This document shows positions 6,694 to 14,861 of a DNA stretch of 17,069 nt, piece by piece; position 1 is the first letter of the stretch; every line of letters starts with the position of its first letter. A program made the position numbers and the translations under genes. The stretch is from Candidatus Micrarchaeota archaeon (GTDB lineage Archaea; Micrarchaeota; Micrarchaeia; Anstonellales; Bilamarchaeaceae), in assembly GCA_037440825.1 (NCBI GenBank), contig JBBITJ010000008.1, forward strand, positions 15,601 through 32,669, in the 5' to 3' direction. The notes beneath the pieces were generated by a model, which was not told the origin of the DNA, did not search any database, and saw nothing but the letters and a program-made list of their open reading frames with translations.

Positions 6694-6730
6694 ATTATAC
6701 CTTTGCATATTCCATCATTAAAAGCATTCT

Positions 6731-6795
6731 GTGGTCCCGGGTCCCCAGTTCTCAGTTTCGGAACTGGAAACCTGGAACGGAAAAACTCGGGCTGC
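6731..6795. repeat. Heptamer-repeat hairpin between divergent promoters
   Basis: GTCCCGG GTCCCCA GTTCTCA GTTTCGG aac TGGAAAC CTGGAAC GGAAAAAC. Inner stem CAGTT/AACTG, outer stem CCCGGGT/ACTCGGG. Confidence 0.8.
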
Positions 6796-6836
6796 ACACC
6801 CATAGTATTTAAAGCGTGCAAACCCTAAACAAATCC

Positions 6837-7016
6837 ATGGCTGACATGGAATTCGATGGTATGGATGACCTGTCCGCGAACTCCGAGATACGCATCATCG
6901 CGTTGGAGCTCATGAAGCTCGCGTCGAAGAAGAGGAAAAGCTTCCAGCAGGTCGCAAAGGAATACATAAAGAACGTCTATTCGCTCAGGCAGATGCTGGA
7001 CCGCCAGAAGGAGTAG
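6837..7016 (+). CDS. Small hypothetical helical protein (59 aa), first gene of a probable operon with DUF2070 and tyrS
   Basis: ATG at 6837, about 24 nt after TTTAAA (6808-6813). The stop is 2 nt before the next ATG. Confidence 0.7.
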   Translation: MADMEFDGMDDLSANSEIRIIALELMKLASKKRKSFQQVAKEYIKNVYSLRQMLDRQKE

Positions 7017-7018
7017 CC

Positions 7019-10611: not shown

Positions 10612-11253
10612 CTATTTCAGTATCGTCCCAGTCTGCATGTACCAGAGGTAGAAATCCAGTTCCCCCAAACTCGGTTTCCAGTCTCCGGTCTCCAGTTTAG
10701 AACACAGCGTTCTGAGCTTTGCCTCGTTTTCCAAATAAACCTTCCTGTTGAGGGTTTTCGGCAGCGAATCCATCATTTTGTGCTTGTGCATTATCCTGAT
10801 TATATGGCGATCGAGGATTGCCACATCAAAAAATCCTAGGTTGCGCAGAAGGTGGCTTGCTTCCTTGAAGCCGAGCCCCTTCACATTTTCCACAAGCCAC
10901 TCCCGCCTCTCTTCGTCATCCTTCAATTCCAAAAGCGTCTTCTTCAATTTCCCGTAATGCCTTCTCGCTTCAACTATGTATTTGGCGCGCACGTTGTAGA
11001 ACCTGTAGCCGCGCGCCCTGAGGAAATGTGCGAGCTCCTTTTCCGGAAGCGTGCGGAACCCGCCCCCTATCTTTTCCTGTATTTCGATTCCCTTCGCGGC
11101 CCGCTCGTTCGCAGTCAGGAGGCAGAAGCACAATTCCGAAAAAATCCGCCCTTCTGATGAAAAGTTCGCGCCCAGCCCGCGCATGCGCGCATCAATCTGT
11201 TTCCTCACTTCGCTCTTGCGCAATTCGGAGATTGCCGAAACCAAATGCCGCAT
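10612..11253 (-). CDS. ogg: 8-oxoguanine DNA glycosylase/AP lyase (archaeal Ogg2 type)
   Basis: ELCFCLLTAN, GYRFYNVRAKYI, the HhH segment VKGLGFKEASHLLRNLG, AILDRH, and C-terminal LDFYLWYMQTGTILK. The likely start is ATG 11253. Confidence 0.92.
   Translation of the reverse strand: MRHLVSAISELRKSEVRKQIDARMRGLGANFSSEGRIFSELCFCLLTANERAAKGIEIQEKIGGGFRTLPEKELAHFLRARGYRFYNVRAKYIVEARRHYGKLKKTLLELKDDEERREWLVENVKGLGFKEASHLLRNLGFFDVAILDRHIIRIMHKHKMMDSLPKTLNRKVYLENEAKLRTLCSKLETGDWKPSLGELDFYLWYMQTGTILK
10674..10701. repeat. Heptamer array inside the ogg coding sequence
   Basis: GTTTCCA GTCTCCG GTCTCCA GTTTAGA on the + strand, encoding SKLETGDWK on the minus strand. Confidence 0.7.
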
Positions 11254-11345
11254 GCGGAGAGTTCTCGCATTAGTCTTATATTTTGCGCGGCAGAGAGAAT
11301 GTTTTTTTAAATTGTTGCAGCACAAATACAATTACGGTGGTCAGA

Positions 11346-11828
11346 ATGAACAAATGCTTATCCGCAGCTACGCGTATATCCAAAGACATCTACTATGGCT
11401 TGAAGGGAAACGGCTTCTTTGCGAAGAAGCCGGCGCCTGAGCCCTATTTCCTCAAAGCAGTGTTATGCGAGCCCTCCCCTCTATTCAGGCTCAAGACGAG
11501 CGCGCTCGAAAACAACAGCGAAATCGCGAAATGCGCGATAAGGCGGATGCTGAGGCATAAGGACTGGTTCCACAGGATGCAGGCAGCGAAGGCGCTCGGG
11601 GAGATAAAGGACCGCGGCGCGGTGGAACCGCTCTGCCTCGTGCTGCAGAAAGACCCATCCATCTCAGTGCGCGCAGAGGCTGCCGAAGCGCTGGGCGAGA
11701 TAGGCGATTACTCCGCCATGCCTGCGCTCAGGAAGGCGCGCCACGACGAGTTCAGCGTGAAGCTCGCTGCCAAGATAGCGATGATGAAAATCGCGCCCCT
11801 CGAGTTGGGTGACGCGCCCGGAAGATGA
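11346..11828 (+). CDS. HEAT/PBS-lyase repeat protein
   Basis: Repeats RMQAAKALGEIKDRGAVEPL and VRAEAAEALGEIGDYSAMPAL. GGTGG RBS at 11336-11340 and ATG at 11346. Confidence 0.85.
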   Translation: MNKCLSAATRISKDIYYGLKGNGFFAKKPAPEPYFLKAVLCEPSPLFRLKTSALENNSEIAKCAIRRMLRHKDWFHRMQAAKALGEIKDRGAVEPLCLVLQKDPSISVRAEAAEALGEIGDYSAMPALRKARHDEFSVKLAAKIAMMKIAPLELGDAPGR

Positions 11829-11846
11829 GAGCGGGCTCTCAATACG

Positions 11847-11854
11847 TTTTTAAA
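11847..11854 (+). promoter_or_regulatory. Candidate TATA box of the ribosomal protein operon
   Basis: TTTTTAAA about 235 nt upstream of the rpl3 ATG. It would place transcription start just before the structured leader. Confidence 0.55.
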
Positions 11855-11882
11855 CATTTCCCTATTAATTCCTAGTTACTCA

Positions 11883-12072
11883 TTATCTAAATCCAGTTTT
11901 GGATGCATGCGCCGAAATATGTGCATGTTCGAAATGCGGCATCCCATACGCGTTTCCGGTTCCGGGTTTTCGGTTTCGAAACCGAAGATGCGAAACGGGA
12001 AACTGAATTGGGCAATGCGACATACTAGAACAGTTAGATAAAGTTTAAGGGCAATGGATTACACCAACCCTT
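11883..12072 (+). ncRNA. Candidate structured 5' leader (r-leader-like cis-regulatory RNA) of the rpl3 operon
   Basis: P1 TTATCTAA(11883-11890)/TTAGATAA(12034-12041) encloses P2 ATCCA/TGGAT(11891-11904), P3 GCATGCGC/GTGCATGT(11905-11928) and P4 ATG..GCATCCCA(11934-11946)/TGGG..ATGC..CAT(12009-12023). A further hairpin AAGGG..TGG/CCA.CCCTT lies at 12047-12072. Folded by eye. Confidence 0.55.
11952..12003. repeat. Heptamer-repeat hairpin at the tip of leader stem P4
   Basis: GTTTCCG GTTCCGG GTTTTCG GTTTCGA aac CGAAGAT GCGAAAC GGGAAAC, with central palindrome TTCGGTTTCGAAACCGAA. Confidence 0.8.
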
Positions 12073-12088
12073 CACACAAAGTGATATC

Positions 12089-13030
12089 ATGGATTTGAGG
12101 AGGCCCAGGAGAGGTTCGCGAGGATTCAGGCCCAGGAAGAGGGCTGAGACCCAGGTAGTCGAGATGTTCTGGCCCGCGAGGACAGAGAGCAGGATACTCG
12201 GCTTCGCAGGCTACAAGGTCGGCATGACCACTGTCGCTTACATAGACCAGTCCGAGAGCCCGACGAAAGGGCAGGAGGTCGTGGGCGCAGGAACGGTCCT
12301 CGAAGCCCCCCCGATTTACGTTTACGGGATCCGCGGATACAAGAGCGGAAACATTTTGGGCGACATGCTCGTCTCTGACGAGGCGAAGCTCAAGGAGCTC
12401 GGGATGAAGAAGGCGAAGAAGCTTGAACTCAACGATTCAGAGGTTGATGACGTGAGGCTCCTCGTGTACACCCAGCCGGACAAGACGCTCATAGGAAAGA
12501 AGCACGTCGAGCGCTTCGAGCTCGGGCTCGGAGGCAAGGACGCGAAGGAGAAGCTCGCGCTCGCGAAAGGGTTCCTCGGAAAGGAGCTGCGCGCGAAAGA
12601 CGTGTTCAAGGCAGGCGAAGTCGTGGACGTGGTCGCAATCACGAAAGGAAAGGGCTGGCAGGGCGCAGTCAAGAGGTTCGGATCGAACCTCCAGCGCCCC
12701 AAGGCGACAGGAAAGCGCAGGCACGTCGGTACCCTGGGGCAGTGGCACCCGAGCTACGTGCTCTACACCGCCCCGCAGGCCGGGCAGACGGGCTACCACA
12801 AGCGCACAGAGCTCAACAAGTCCATACTCAAGATCTCCGAGAACATCGACGAGATAAACCCGAACGGCGGCTTCCCTCACTACGGATTCGTGAAGAACGA
12901 CTTCATAGTGGTGAAGGGCAGCGTGCCCGGGCCCACGAAGAGGCTGGTGAAGATGAGGGTTGCGGTGAGGGACAACGGACCCTACAAGGAAGCCAAGACC
13001 ACCTACATTTCCAACGAGCCGAAGCAGTGA
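12089..13030 (+). CDS. rpl3: 50S ribosomal protein L3 (uL3)
   Basis: PRRGSRGFRPRKRA, GFAGYKVGMT, TKGKGWQGAVKRFG, AGQTGYHKRTE and KGSVPGP. Confidence 0.98.
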   Translation: MDLRRPRRGSRGFRPRKRAETQVVEMFWPARTESRILGFAGYKVGMTTVAYIDQSESPTKGQEVVGAGTVLEAPPIYVYGIRGYKSGNILGDMLVSDEAKLKELGMKKAKKLELNDSEVDDVRLLVYTQPDKTLIGKKHVERFELGLGGKDAKEKLALAKGFLGKELRAKDVFKAGEVVDVVAITKGKGWQGAVKRFGSNLQRPKATGKRRHVGTLGQWHPSYVLYTAPQAGQTGYHKRTELNKSILKISENIDEINPNGGFPHYGFVKNDFIVVKGSVPGPTKRLVKMRVAVRDNGPYKEAKTTYISNEPKQ

Positions 13031-13035
13031 TCATT

Positions 13036-13824
13036 ATGAAATCAGAAGTATACTCTATCGATGGAAAAACCGGGAAGGTGATAGACCTGCCGGCGTGCTT
13101 TGACGACGCGGTGCGCGAGGACCTCATAAAGAGGGCGGTGCTCAGCGACGAGTCCAGGCTCTACCAGCCCAAGGGCGCGTTCCGCAGGGCAGGGCTCCAG
13201 ACTTCCGCGGTTTACGACGGAAGGAAGGACGATTTCGGTTCGCTGAAGAACAGGGGTGGCGCAAAGCTCCCGCGCGAAACGGGCGCGAAGGGCCAGCACG
13301 GAAAAGTGAAAAGGATTCCGAGCGCGGTCAAGGGAAGGCGCGCGCATCCTCCGAAGCCCGAGAAGGTGCTCGTAGAGGACATGAACGAGAAGGAGTACAA
13401 GAAGGCGCTCAGGTCTGCGATTTCCGCAACCCAGAACGCGAAACTCGCAACTCAGCGCGGCCACATATTTGATGCGAAGAAGCTCCCGCTTGTGGTTGAC
13501 AACGCTTTCGAAGGAGTGAAAAAGACCAAAGACGTTCTTGCGATTTTCGAAAAACTGGGGATTGCGAAGGACGTGGAGAAGGCAAAAGGCAAGTCCAAGC
13601 CCATCAGCGGAACCAGGCACACGAGGAGCGCGTCCAGGTACGTGCCCAAGTCCGTGCTCGTGGTCGTGAAGGACGGCGCGGTGCTCAAGGCAGCGCGCAA
13701 CCTCTCCGGCGTGGACGCGGTGAAGGTTTCGGAGCTCAAGGTAATGCACCTCGCTCCCGGGACGCACGCGGGAAGGCTAACTGTGTTTTCCGCGAACGCG
13801 ATAGAAGAGCTGAAGAAAATCTAA
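13036..13824 (+). CDS. rpl4: 50S ribosomal protein L4 (uL4)
   Basis: The true start is ATG 13036 (MKSEVY). Motifs VREDLIKRAV, GRRAHPPK, ARNLSGVD and LAPGTHAGRLTVF. Confidence 0.97.
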   Translation: MKSEVYSIDGKTGKVIDLPACFDDAVREDLIKRAVLSDESRLYQPKGAFRRAGLQTSAVYDGRKDDFGSLKNRGGAKLPRETGAKGQHGKVKRIPSAVKGRRAHPPKPEKVLVEDMNEKEYKKALRSAISATQNAKLATQRGHIFDAKKLPLVVDNAFEGVKKTKDVLAIFEKLGIAKDVEKAKGKSKPISGTRHTRSASRYVPKSVLVVVKDGAVLKAARNLSGVDAVKVSELKVMHLAPGTHAGRLTVFSANAIEELKKI

Positions 13825-13833
13825 GGTGAAAAT

Positions 13834-14082
13834 ATGTTCATAGTCGCACCGATAAGAACGGAAAAGGCAGTCGCAAAGATGGAATTCGACAACACGATGA
13901 CTTTCGAGGTCGTGGAGAAGGCGACCAAGAAGGACGTGAAGGTCGAAGTGGAGTCCATGTTCGGAGTGAAAGTGGATAGCGTGAGGATGAAGAACACTCC
14001 GAAAGGGAAGAAGCACGCCGTCGTGACGCTCGCGAAGGGCTCCAAGACCGACGACATAGCCGCGAAGCTCAAGCTCATATAA
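13834..14082 (+). CDS. rpl23: 50S ribosomal protein L23 (uL23)
   Basis: P..TEKA, N...FEV...ATK..VK..VE..FGVKV and KGKKHA.V.L. GGTGA RBS and operon position. Confidence 0.96.
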   Translation: MFIVAPIRTEKAVAKMEFDNTMTFEVVEKATKKDVKVEVESMFGVKVDSVRMKNTPKGKKHAVVTLAKGSKTDDIAAKLKLI

Positions 14083-14105
14083 TGAAATGAATCGATGGTG
14101 TTCAA

Positions 14106-14861
14106 ATGGGAAAACGACTGAAGCAACAGAGGCGCGGTGATGGAACCCCGGCGTACAAGGCGCCCACGACGCGCTACAAGGTGGACCTCCAGTACAGGCC
14201 TTACGACGACGAGGAGAAGGCGGGAGTGCTGAGGGGCCAGATACTCTCCTTCATAGACGACCCGGGAAGGGACGCGCTCGTGATGGAAGTGCTTTACGAC
14301 AACGGGGAGAAGGGCTACCTTCTCGCTCCGGAAGGCGCGATCATAGGCGAGTACGTGGAAGTCGGAGCCCAGGCGAAAGTGAACGTGGGCAACGTGCTTC
14401 CGCTTTACAGGATTCCGGACGGCGCTTACGTATTCAACGTGGAGAGGAGCCCGGGCGACGGAGGGAAGATGATGAAGGCTCCCGGCTCGTACGCAGTTAT
14501 CGTTTCGAGGGAGAAGGACGCCGTTTATGTAAAGCTCCCAAGCAAGCAGACATTGAGGCTTTCCGCGGACTGCAGGGCCCAGATAGGCATAGTCAGCGGA
14601 GGCGGAAGGCAGGACCAGCCGCTCCTCAAGGCAGGCAATGCGTTCTACAAGTACAAGCAGGCGAGAAACCGCATGTGGCCGCACAACAGGGGAGTCAAGA
14701 TGAGCGTTTACAACCACCCGCACGGAGGCAAGCAGCACCACGAAGGAAAGCCGACCACCGTCGCGAGGGGCACACCACCCGGAAGGAAGGTCGGGCACAT
14801 AGCCGCCCGTTCGATTGGAAGGAAGAAGGCAATAAGGACTACTGAAGAGGGATCGCAATGA
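14106..14861 (+). CDS. rpl2: 50S ribosomal protein L2 (uL2)
   Basis: MGKRLKQQRRG, DPGR, PGDGGK, WP..RGV.M...HPHGG and PPGRKVG.IAAR. Confidence 0.98.
   Translation: MGKRLKQQRRGDGTPAYKAPTTRYKVDLQYRPYDDEEKAGVLRGQILSFIDDPGRDALVMEVLYDNGEKGYLLAPEGAIIGEYVEVGAQAKVNVGNVLPLYRIPDGAYVFNVERSPGDGGKMMKAPGSYAVIVSREKDAVYVKLPSKQTLRLSADCRAQIGIVSGGGRQDQPLLKAGNAFYKYKQARNRMWPHNRGVKMSVYNHPHGGKQHHEGKPTTVARGTPPGRKVGHIAARSIGRKKAIRTTEEGSQ

Follow-up and report, generated by a model that had tools for sequence, protein, structure and literature searches.

What occupies the 260 nucleotides (nt) that precede rpl3, the first gene of a ribosomal-protein operon, in a genome of a Candidatus Micrarchaeota archaeon? The question arises from a stretch of 17,069 nt (NCBI GenBank assembly GCA_037440825.1, contig JBBITJ010000008.1, positions 15,601 to 32,669 of the forward strand), called the window here and numbered from its first letter. 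The gap reported there by an initial annotation, made from the letters of the DNA, indeed extends from 11829 to 12088, between an open reading frame (ORF) for a HEAT-repeat protein (11283-11828) and rpl3 (12089-13030), and ranks second in length among the window gaps in the ORF list. On balance, it appears to supply the ~210-nt 5' leader of the rpl3-rpl4-rpl23-rpl2... messenger. The conserved unit is an outer helix (P1) and a small core hairpin interrupted by a 1x3 internal loop, plus a TATA box; two of the three inner stems closed by P1 and a heptamer-repeat tip are insertions private to the genome or the genus. The initial annotation had proposed a candidate archaeal ribosomal leader. An element that is kept and covaries in relatives bears this out; conservation of the whole multi-stem junction does not hold.

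The closing stem of 8 bp around three inner stems that had been described is recovered in the minimum-energy fold, where TTATCTAA (11883-11890) pairs with TTAGATAA (12034-12041) to form P1 and encloses stems at 11891-11904, 11905-11928 and 11934-12023. The fold has an energy of -67.4 kcal/mol against a mean of -46.3 for dinucleotide shuffles (z = -5.68; none of 200 as stable). The heptamer hairpin is the tip of the third stem, as had been seen, and its removal leaves the rest of the fold intact; with 11950-12005 deleted, the leader still folds better than shuffled controls (z = -3.38; none of 300 as stable). An internally looped hairpin, also noted before, ends 16 nt before the ATG. The parts of the fold, all on the plus strand, are the following.

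11883-11890, plus strand: 5' strand of P1, UUAUCUAA, paired with 12034-12041 in the minimum-energy fold.
11891-11928, plus strand: two short hairpins (11891-11904 and 11905-11928) of the minimum-energy fold, private to the source genome.
11934-11946, plus strand: 5' strand of the core hairpin, AUG..GCA (11939-11941)-U (11942)-CCC (11943-11945)-A, with GYR-N-CCC conserved.
11952-12003, plus strand: insertion at the tip of the core, a hairpin of heptamer repeats that occupies the apical loop and lies outside the conserved element.
12009-12023, plus strand: 3' strand of the core hairpin, U-GGG (12010-12012)-CAA (12013-12015)-UGC (12016-12018)..CAU, with CAA as the 3-nt side of the loop.
12034-12041, plus strand: 3' strand of P1, UUAGAUAA, in the minimum-energy fold.
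12047-12072, plus strand: reversed second copy of the loop module, AAGGG-CAA-UGG [AUUACA] CCA-A-CCCUU, found by the strict hairpin scan.

Both the hairpins at 11891-11928 and the 3' hairpin are missing in six congeners, where P1 joins the core directly. Of the whole gap, only the heptamer tip recurs elsewhere in the genome; core and P1 each occur once. The pairing of CTAGT (11872-11876) with ACTAG (12024-12028) that had been put forward as an alternative or pseudoknot fared less well. Both strings are present, and a pseudoknot between them is unlikely because CTAGT lies upstream of the predicted transcription start and is absent from congeners.

Conservation was followed by reading the regions upstream of rpl3 in 30 relatives that span the genus, family and order of the source genome. 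A helix equivalent to P1 is present in the minimum-energy folds of five of the seven genomes of the genus (L009, L010, L011, L012 and L030) and can be drawn by eye only in L013 and L014. Its sequence differs between congeners, and inside it the genus genomes have in common only GGCAUCCC ... GGGCAAUGC; in L030, the 3' strand of the core has decayed to AGGUAGUGC and fails the strict pattern. Order-wide, the core reads GYR-N-CCC, a loop of 5-75 nt, then GGG-CWA-YRC, and is found behind a TATA box in 23 of the 30 relatives, GGGCWAYRC being the most conserved string of the leader. The apical loop has 5-17 nt in 14 short-loop relatives (alignment A1) and 34-75 nt in others. A strict descriptor of the core matches 33 of 110 upstream regions (35 kb), four of them duplicate loci and three lying outside Micrarchaeota, which are to be discounted, versus 27 matches in 709 kb elsewhere in the loci. 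In 13 of the 23 core-bearing relatives, 15-29 nt separate the 3' end of the core from the start codon downstream, and in sequences such as L022, L025 and L032 the 3' strand of the hairpin continues directly into a GGUG box.

A covariance model, R1, was made from the 14 short-loop examples. Run on the loci, it recovers these 14 and five untrained sites (L014, L018, L049, L053 and L057); all 19 matches precede rpl3, and R1 has no match in rRNA (ribosomal RNA) loci. Run on whole genomes, it gives 39 matches (E<=0.01) in 38 of the 151 genomes of the order, and 37 of the 39 lie directly upstream of rpl3 on the same strand, 36 within ~200 nt of the L3 match and one before an rpl3 fragment at a contig end. 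The other two, in G108 (9.2e-4) and G136 (0.0094), fall in coding-like sequence and are among the weaker E-values. Of the 38 R1-positive genomes, 37 carry one copy of the core, and the extra match in the other belongs to a second rpl3 fragment at a contig end. An alignment fitted to the model has 99.2% of its cells paired, and controls in which the partner strand is slid by one to three columns reach at most 58%. In the outer stem, all three pairs carry compensatory changes: G-C to A-U in 3 of 21 sequences, C-G to U-A in 3 and A-U to G-C in 7; none of 500 shuffles reaches the covariation score of the core. Conservation and covariation among relatives, for which the initial annotation had called, are found by the descriptor and model searches and by the pair counts, respectively. 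As judged by sequence comparison, the core hairpin before rpl3 is conserved with compensating changes in Micrarchaeota. A 64-nt insertion in the apical loop hides the core of the window from R1; membership of the window therefore rests on the descriptor and on reading of the sequence.

The same module is present twice in the window leader. In the core, GCA-U-CCC on the 5' side faces GGG-CAA-UGC on the 3' side across the 1x3 internal loop; at 12047-12072, GGG-CAA-UGG is the 5' strand and CCA-A-CCC the 3' strand. By this correspondence of letters, the 3' hairpin is the core module with reversed strand connectivity, and it ends 7 nt before the Shine-Dalgarno sequence. The base opposite CWA may be U, A or C, so no pairing is needed there and three bases face one. 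The module pattern has 49 matches in the source genome, 17 of short and 32 of long spacing; among the 17, which were checked, 15 lie inside open frames of at least 100 codons, and the two exceptions are the two leader copies. A strict form of the reversed hairpin (GGG-C[AUC][AC]-UNN, a loop of 3-8 nt, NNA-N-CCC, inner stem complementary) precedes rpl3 in 22 of 106 non-duplicate loci and is absent from the other 681,894 nt of these loci on both strands. A loose scan shows no enrichment (46 of 110 upstream loci versus 736 matches in 709 kb elsewhere), which leaves the strict scan as the informative one.

These 22 strict loci are the window and 21 loci of a second phylum, of Thermoplasmatota type. 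The titles of the 21 read Thermoplasmatota, Thermoplasmata, Thermoplasmatales, Poseidoniales, Marine Group II or 'Methanobacteriota archaeon'; the loci are labelled within L062-L116 (e.g. L072:1021-1107) and the genomes within G154-G307. In all 21, the reversed hairpin is the middle arm of a three-way junction of 80-89 nt before rpl3, closed by a P1 of the form CCAGAC.../...GUCACGG with a 1x2 loop and bearing a variable third arm, and the element lies 60-100 nt from the start codon. Pairing holds in 99.3% of cells (RNAalifold, pair counts), none of 500 shuffles reaches the score, and compensatory changes affect five of 14 pairs, with up to 10 of the 21 sequences involved. Of 91 columns, 22 are invariant in the 21 sequences, mostly in the internal loops and the junction. 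The R2 model has one match in each of five source genomes and a single match in 72 of 151 genomes of the Thermoplasmatota-type phylum; all 72 share contig and strand with the L3 match and lie upstream of it, by coordinates compared by hand. Among the window and 22 Micrarchaeota loci (97 kb), the best R2 match is the second hairpin of the window, with an E-value (0.65) that is not significant alone.

In other families of Micrarchaeota, the leaders are larger or differ in form. Expanded rpl3 leaders, with two hairpins on the single-base side, are seen at loci L019, L043, L047, L048, L050, L055 and L067. Leaders of the form RUGA-CAC-UCC...GGA-A-UCAY, which carry the letters of a canonical C-loop, occur at L031, L034, L037, L038, L045, L061 and L073, and L031 seems to nest the expanded and the CAC kinds.

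The heptamer hairpin belongs to a repeat with copies on many contigs of the source genome. TRF lists 169 period-7 arrays there, with units like GTTTCCG or GGTTTCG often followed by their own complement, which gives hairpins; examples are window 11950-12005 and, in G000, C6:36721-36777, C24:4526-4563 and C1:86910-86934. Period-7 repeats are also found in or beside the rpl3 leaders of other genera (L010, L017, L020 and L024), and one relative carries a different 7-nt unit, AGCYRTT. The open-frame proxy covers 96% of this GC-rich genome, too much to separate coding from non-coding heptamer repeats. The repeats may reflect slippage, a mobile element or protein sites.

How the leader is placed in a transcript is suggested by the signals around the fold, which are the following.

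11826-11851, plus strand: terminator-like hairpin TGAGAGC GG GCTCTCA followed by a T-run, spanning the stop codon of the HEAT ORF.
11847-11861, plus strand: putative promoter of the rpl3 operon, TATA box TTTTTAAA (11847-11854) inside a conserved 15-mer, TTTTTAAACATTTCC.
11878-11886, plus strand: predicted transcription start (~11878) and conserved 5' end CTCATTAT, placed by TATA spacing and conservation.
12080-12091, plus strand: Shine-Dalgarno sequence AGUGAU (12080-12085), assigned from the 3' end of 16S rRNA, and rpl3 start codon (12089-12091).
12089-14861, plus strand: rpl3, rpl4, rpl23 and rpl2, the first four genes of the operon downstream of the leader.

One terminator-like site was found where 0.3 is expected, which suggests that the upstream transcript ends ahead of the rpl3 promoter. 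The 15-mer TTTTTAAACATTTCC occurs once in the window, with 0.03 occurrences expected. In seven genomes of the genus, the TATA box CTTTTTAAA is followed 24-26 nt on by CTCATTAT, and in the other relatives that were read a TATA-like box also stands ahead of the core hairpin. With the usual archaeal spacing from TATA box to start, and placed by that box alone, transcription would begin near 11878, upstream of the structure. The AGUGAU box matches the 3' end of 16S rRNA of the source genome, GAUCACCUCC, and similar boxes, GUGAU or GGUG, precede other window genes.

Known RNAs offer no ready name for this element. A scan of the whole window with Rfam 15 at gathering thresholds finds only a transfer RNA (tRNA) at 1471-1620, and a permissive scan of 11700-12250 (E<=10) gives five chance-level matches (E 0.51-8.2), three on the heptamer hairpin and two at 11777-11797, at the end of the HEAT ORF; among 17 Micrarchaeota and 20 Thermoplasmatota-type loci (E<=1), nothing relevant appears. 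The Rfam models of ribosomal-protein leaders (r-leaders), which the initial annotation had named for a check, match neither the gap nor the loci of relatives. This includes L4-Archaeoglobi, a motif described by Eckert and Weinberg (2020) upstream of archaeal rplC-rplD-rplW-rplB; confined to Archaeoglobi and rated borderline by its own authors, it was proposed to let a protein of the operon exert feedback (PMC7247131), and it is named among Rfam families (PMC7779021). The two leaders precede the same operon, and feedback has been proposed for both. They differ in that L4-Archaeoglobi is known from Archaeoglobi only, and the window element is not L4-Archaeoglobi because no Rfam 15 match is found, a distinction drawn at the level of covariance models; a distant likeness of shape may exist. 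In the open-access literature on archaeal L3-operon leaders, only the paper of Eckert and Weinberg (PMC7247131) was found.

A further parallel is bacterial. Bacterial L4 acts on both transcription attenuation and translation of the S10 operon. The S10-operon leader that it binds is described as an established r-leader in PMC7247131. It shares with the window an operon with L3, L4, L23 and L2 and feedback by one product (proposed here); it differs in being bacterial, in an operon that starts with S10, and in having no sequence or model match to the window. Among archaea, the L1 leader of Methanococcus is a ribosomal leader. L7Ae kink-turn leaders (PMC5539422 and PMC6298567) and S15 and eL15 r-leader candidates (PMC7247131) are further archaeal cases. 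All four are short structured sites in 5' leaders by the start region, with binding of the encoded protein known or proposed, and all differ from the present element in protein and motif. Kink-turns have a three-base bulge followed by tandem sheared G.A pairs. In the window, UG follows CAA and the opposite strand, GCAUCCC, has no GA, and the element is not a kink-turn or L7Ae site because tandem G.A pairs are missing from both strands. The archaeal bulge-helix-bulge has two 3-nt bulges on opposite strands with a 4-bp helix between them. The element is not such a splicing motif because it has only one 3-nt bulge; in short-loop relatives (5-17 nt) there would also be nothing to excise.

In geometry the loop is that of the C-loop, an asymmetric internal loop and protein-binding site, found in 23S rRNA of H. 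marismortui at 1424-1430/1436-1440, 2716-2722/2760-2764 and 957-964/1004-1009 (PMC2952876 and PMC3273805) and defined by a long strand C-N-C in which both cytosines are multiply paired (PMC2952876). The leader module resembles it in setting three bases against one between Watson-Crick helices, with C as the first base and a variable middle base. The window loops are CAA opposite U (12013-12015/11942) and CAA opposite A (12052-12054/12067), and the 3-versus-1 pattern is family-wide. Both window copies and most members depart from the C-loop in carrying CAA or CUA, without the defining second cytosine; more C-loop-like letters appear as CUC in L080, L096 and L116 and as CAC in the variant Micrarchaeota form. 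The C-loop at 1424-1430/1436-1440 presumably belongs to domain III.

Many r-leaders imitate the rRNA site of their protein, a trait that is supportive and not obligatory. For rRNA look-alikes, four Micrarchaeota 23S, the 16S of the genome itself and five Thermoplasmatota-type 23S were compared with the element; 23S rRNA has no match to the Rfam LSU model in the source genome assembly. Blind searches for 3x1 loops in the four 23S were swamped by chance pairs. Partial likeness of shape is shown by helix 96, by the L2 site at helix 66 and by a hairpin with a CAA-versus-G loop ~130 nt before the sarcin-ricin loop, in a helix taken here to be 91. The L2 site (CGCA/AGUACG in Micrarchaeota), whose bulge uL2 binds (PMC1919495), has in common only a C-G pair followed by a bulge. 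Two candidates were set aside: GGGCAAC near the 3' end of 23S is a GCAA tetraloop in a different context, and the 16S stretch GGGCUACAC matches the consensus of the 3' strand, its partner pairing at only two of three positions.

With moderate confidence, the element can be read as an uncatalogued r-leader that would block the start of translation when a protein of the operon binds it. Two traits of r-leaders are present, a position on the coding strand between TATA box and rpl3 and a covarying structure. A protein-binding operator fits the position, the small size, the invariant loop and the indifference to connectivity and to insertions at the tip, as well as the closeness to the Shine-Dalgarno sequence and the exclusive link to the main ribosomal-protein operon. 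The functional core would be the helix with the asymmetric loop, GGG-CAA-UGC versus GCA-N-CCC, enclosed by P1 in the genus and accepting any insertion at its tip. Its loop module would serve as a docking site for a ribosomal protein made from the operon. Present in excess over free rRNA, this protein would bind the leader and hinder the small subunit at the adjacent Shine-Dalgarno sequence, and translation of rpl3 and the coupled downstream genes would be lowered. In the source genome, insertions may have moved the original module to a distance of 70 nt from the start codon, and the reversed second copy, 7 nt before the Shine-Dalgarno sequence, may restore control. Protein binding, the mechanism of repression and the identity of the ligand are all inferred here from letters and folds.

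As to the ligand, uL3 is a first guess. The globular domain of uL3 organises domain VI, and uL23 is linked to domain III (PMC9935924). The guess falls on uL3 because it is in domain VI that helix 96 carries a C-loop; uL3 may touch the helix-96 loop, and the open-access literature searched yielded no paper naming the protein that touches this loop. Both uL23 and uL2 are also candidates, and uL4 is one by analogy with bacteria. A bolder and rather improbable proposal is that GGG-CNN-U / A-N-CCC is the operator for the main operon of ribosomal proteins in at least two archaeal phyla, Micrarchaeota and the Thermoplasmatota-type one, set in different scaffolds and in either connectivity, and is read by uL3, the first operon product, through mimicry of the domain VI C-loop.

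Several observations weigh against an r-leader of this kind. The start site, and even the RNA strand, are inferred; among public sequencing runs, no RNA run contains the stretch and one DNA run does. The covariation alignments of both phyla were fitted or seeded: the seed pattern of the R1 alignment favoured the stem, alignment A3 was fitted to the model, and the relatives, given their shared ancestry, do not count as independent. The strict form is missing in seven of the 30 relatives, whose leaders were aligned only by eye: some are expanded, with two hairpins inserted at the single-base N, others have CAC opposite A, and two show nothing recognisable. Distances of 70 nt in the window and 60-100 nt in the second phylum separate the module from the start codon; simple occlusion is therefore not the whole story everywhere. 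Helix 96, the nearest rRNA motif class (CUC opposite C in Micrarchaeota; CUC or CAC in the second phylum), differs in the third loop base and in the closing pair, which is C-G there and G-C in the leader module. Finally, comparison with 23S and 16S, which the initial annotation had proposed for the binding sites of the operon proteins, gave no convincing look-alike in the rRNAs compared, and GGGCWAU, CCAGAC and GUCACGG are not conserved strings in them.

Other explanations start from the same facts. The element could be a riboswitch-like sensor for a different ligand, such as an assembly or translation factor, a small molecule or an ion. The 22 invariant columns of 91, concentrated in loops and junction, fit ligand pockets better than they fit many of the narrow r-leaders, and the missing rRNA mimic fits as well. 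Such a sensor is nevertheless unlikely: the Micrarchaeota unit of ~25-30 nt (L013 and L033) is too small for known metabolite pockets, a module found in either connectivity fits a protein that reads one face of a helix, and its sole genomic home is the main ribosomal-protein operon. Comparably doubtful is a ligand-free structure in the messenger, giving protection from 5' exonuclease, folding the start region or marking a processing site. That the element lies ~5-12 nt from the predicted 5' end in both phyla, that its tip accepts any insertion and that the sequence of P1 varies freely would suit this role; a stabiliser would need neither the invariant CCC/GGG, the invariant C with a near-invariant A and the fixed 3-versus-1 geometry kept in two phyla, nor a second copy at the Shine-Dalgarno sequence.

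Much less credible is a non-regulatory pile-up of repeats or a small mobile element with TTATCTAA/TTAGATAA as its terminal inverted repeat. The middle of the fold is a dispersed heptamer copy and two inner hairpins are private to the genome, as it would predict, but the non-heptamer part of the gap is uncopied there, the core covaries and stays single-copy before rpl3 in nearly all R1-positive genomes, and P1 differs between congeners where a transposon end would be conserved. Equally far-fetched is an independent small RNA gene beside rpl3, terminated before the operon, for which its own TATA box and the compact P1-closed fold might speak, since neither a T-run or terminator-like site between 12041 and the start codon nor a second TATA-like box conserved there among congeners is found, the hairpin touches the Shine-Dalgarno sequence in many relatives, and no Rfam family matches.

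The locus itself belongs to a genome of 875 kb in 45 contigs with 54% G+C, whose closest L3 relatives are Micrarchaeota (top identity 86%). Pfam identifies the operon proteins as Ribosomal_L3 (5e-67), L4 (2.5e-32), L23 (5e-14) and L2_C (2e-38). ORFs of ribosomal-protein size continue after rpl2 up to the end of the window and are presumably S19, L22, S3 and L29, names taken from gene order alone. The listed HEAT ORF (TTG start, 11283) overlaps by 49 nt the divergent minus-strand ORF of an Ogg glycosylase (10612-11331), and its true start probably lies further downstream. The longest gap of the window (6709-7018, 310 nt) lies between a minus-strand ORF of 212 aa and a DUF2070 gene. The Rfam tRNA call at 1471-1620 covers 150 nt (51.4 bits, full model), ARAGORN finds no tRNA in the window, and the long insert of this tRNA is probably an intron. 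The 16S of the source genome lies on C27:7363-8906, with ~320 nt of contig beyond it. In the relative locus L123 (G032:C1:184353-189465), the 23S match spans 5113 nt versus ~3000 in others, and large insertions there may be introns.

The significance of the rpl3 leader lies in its rarity and in its build. Few archaeal cis-regulatory RNAs are known: Eckert and Weinberg (2020) put their number at a handful, to which they joined four candidate r-leaders, only one of them for an L3-first operon (PMC7247131). The covarying, single-copy leader described here precedes that operon in 38 of 151 sampled genomes of the Micrarchaeota order and, as a related form, in 72 of 151 of the second phylum, and its core offers an RNA target of ~25 nt for asking how archaea balance the synthesis of ribosomal proteins and rRNA. 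If the module were indeed read by uL3, it would stand as the first feedback operator in any domain to depend on L3, and either great age or exchange between Micrarchaeota and their Thermoplasmatales hosts would account for its spread. Three traits are uncommon among r-leaders and make the element a good model for the evolution of a putative protein-binding RNA module: two strand connectivities, tolerance of large insertions and, in the present genome, a duplicate beside the start site.

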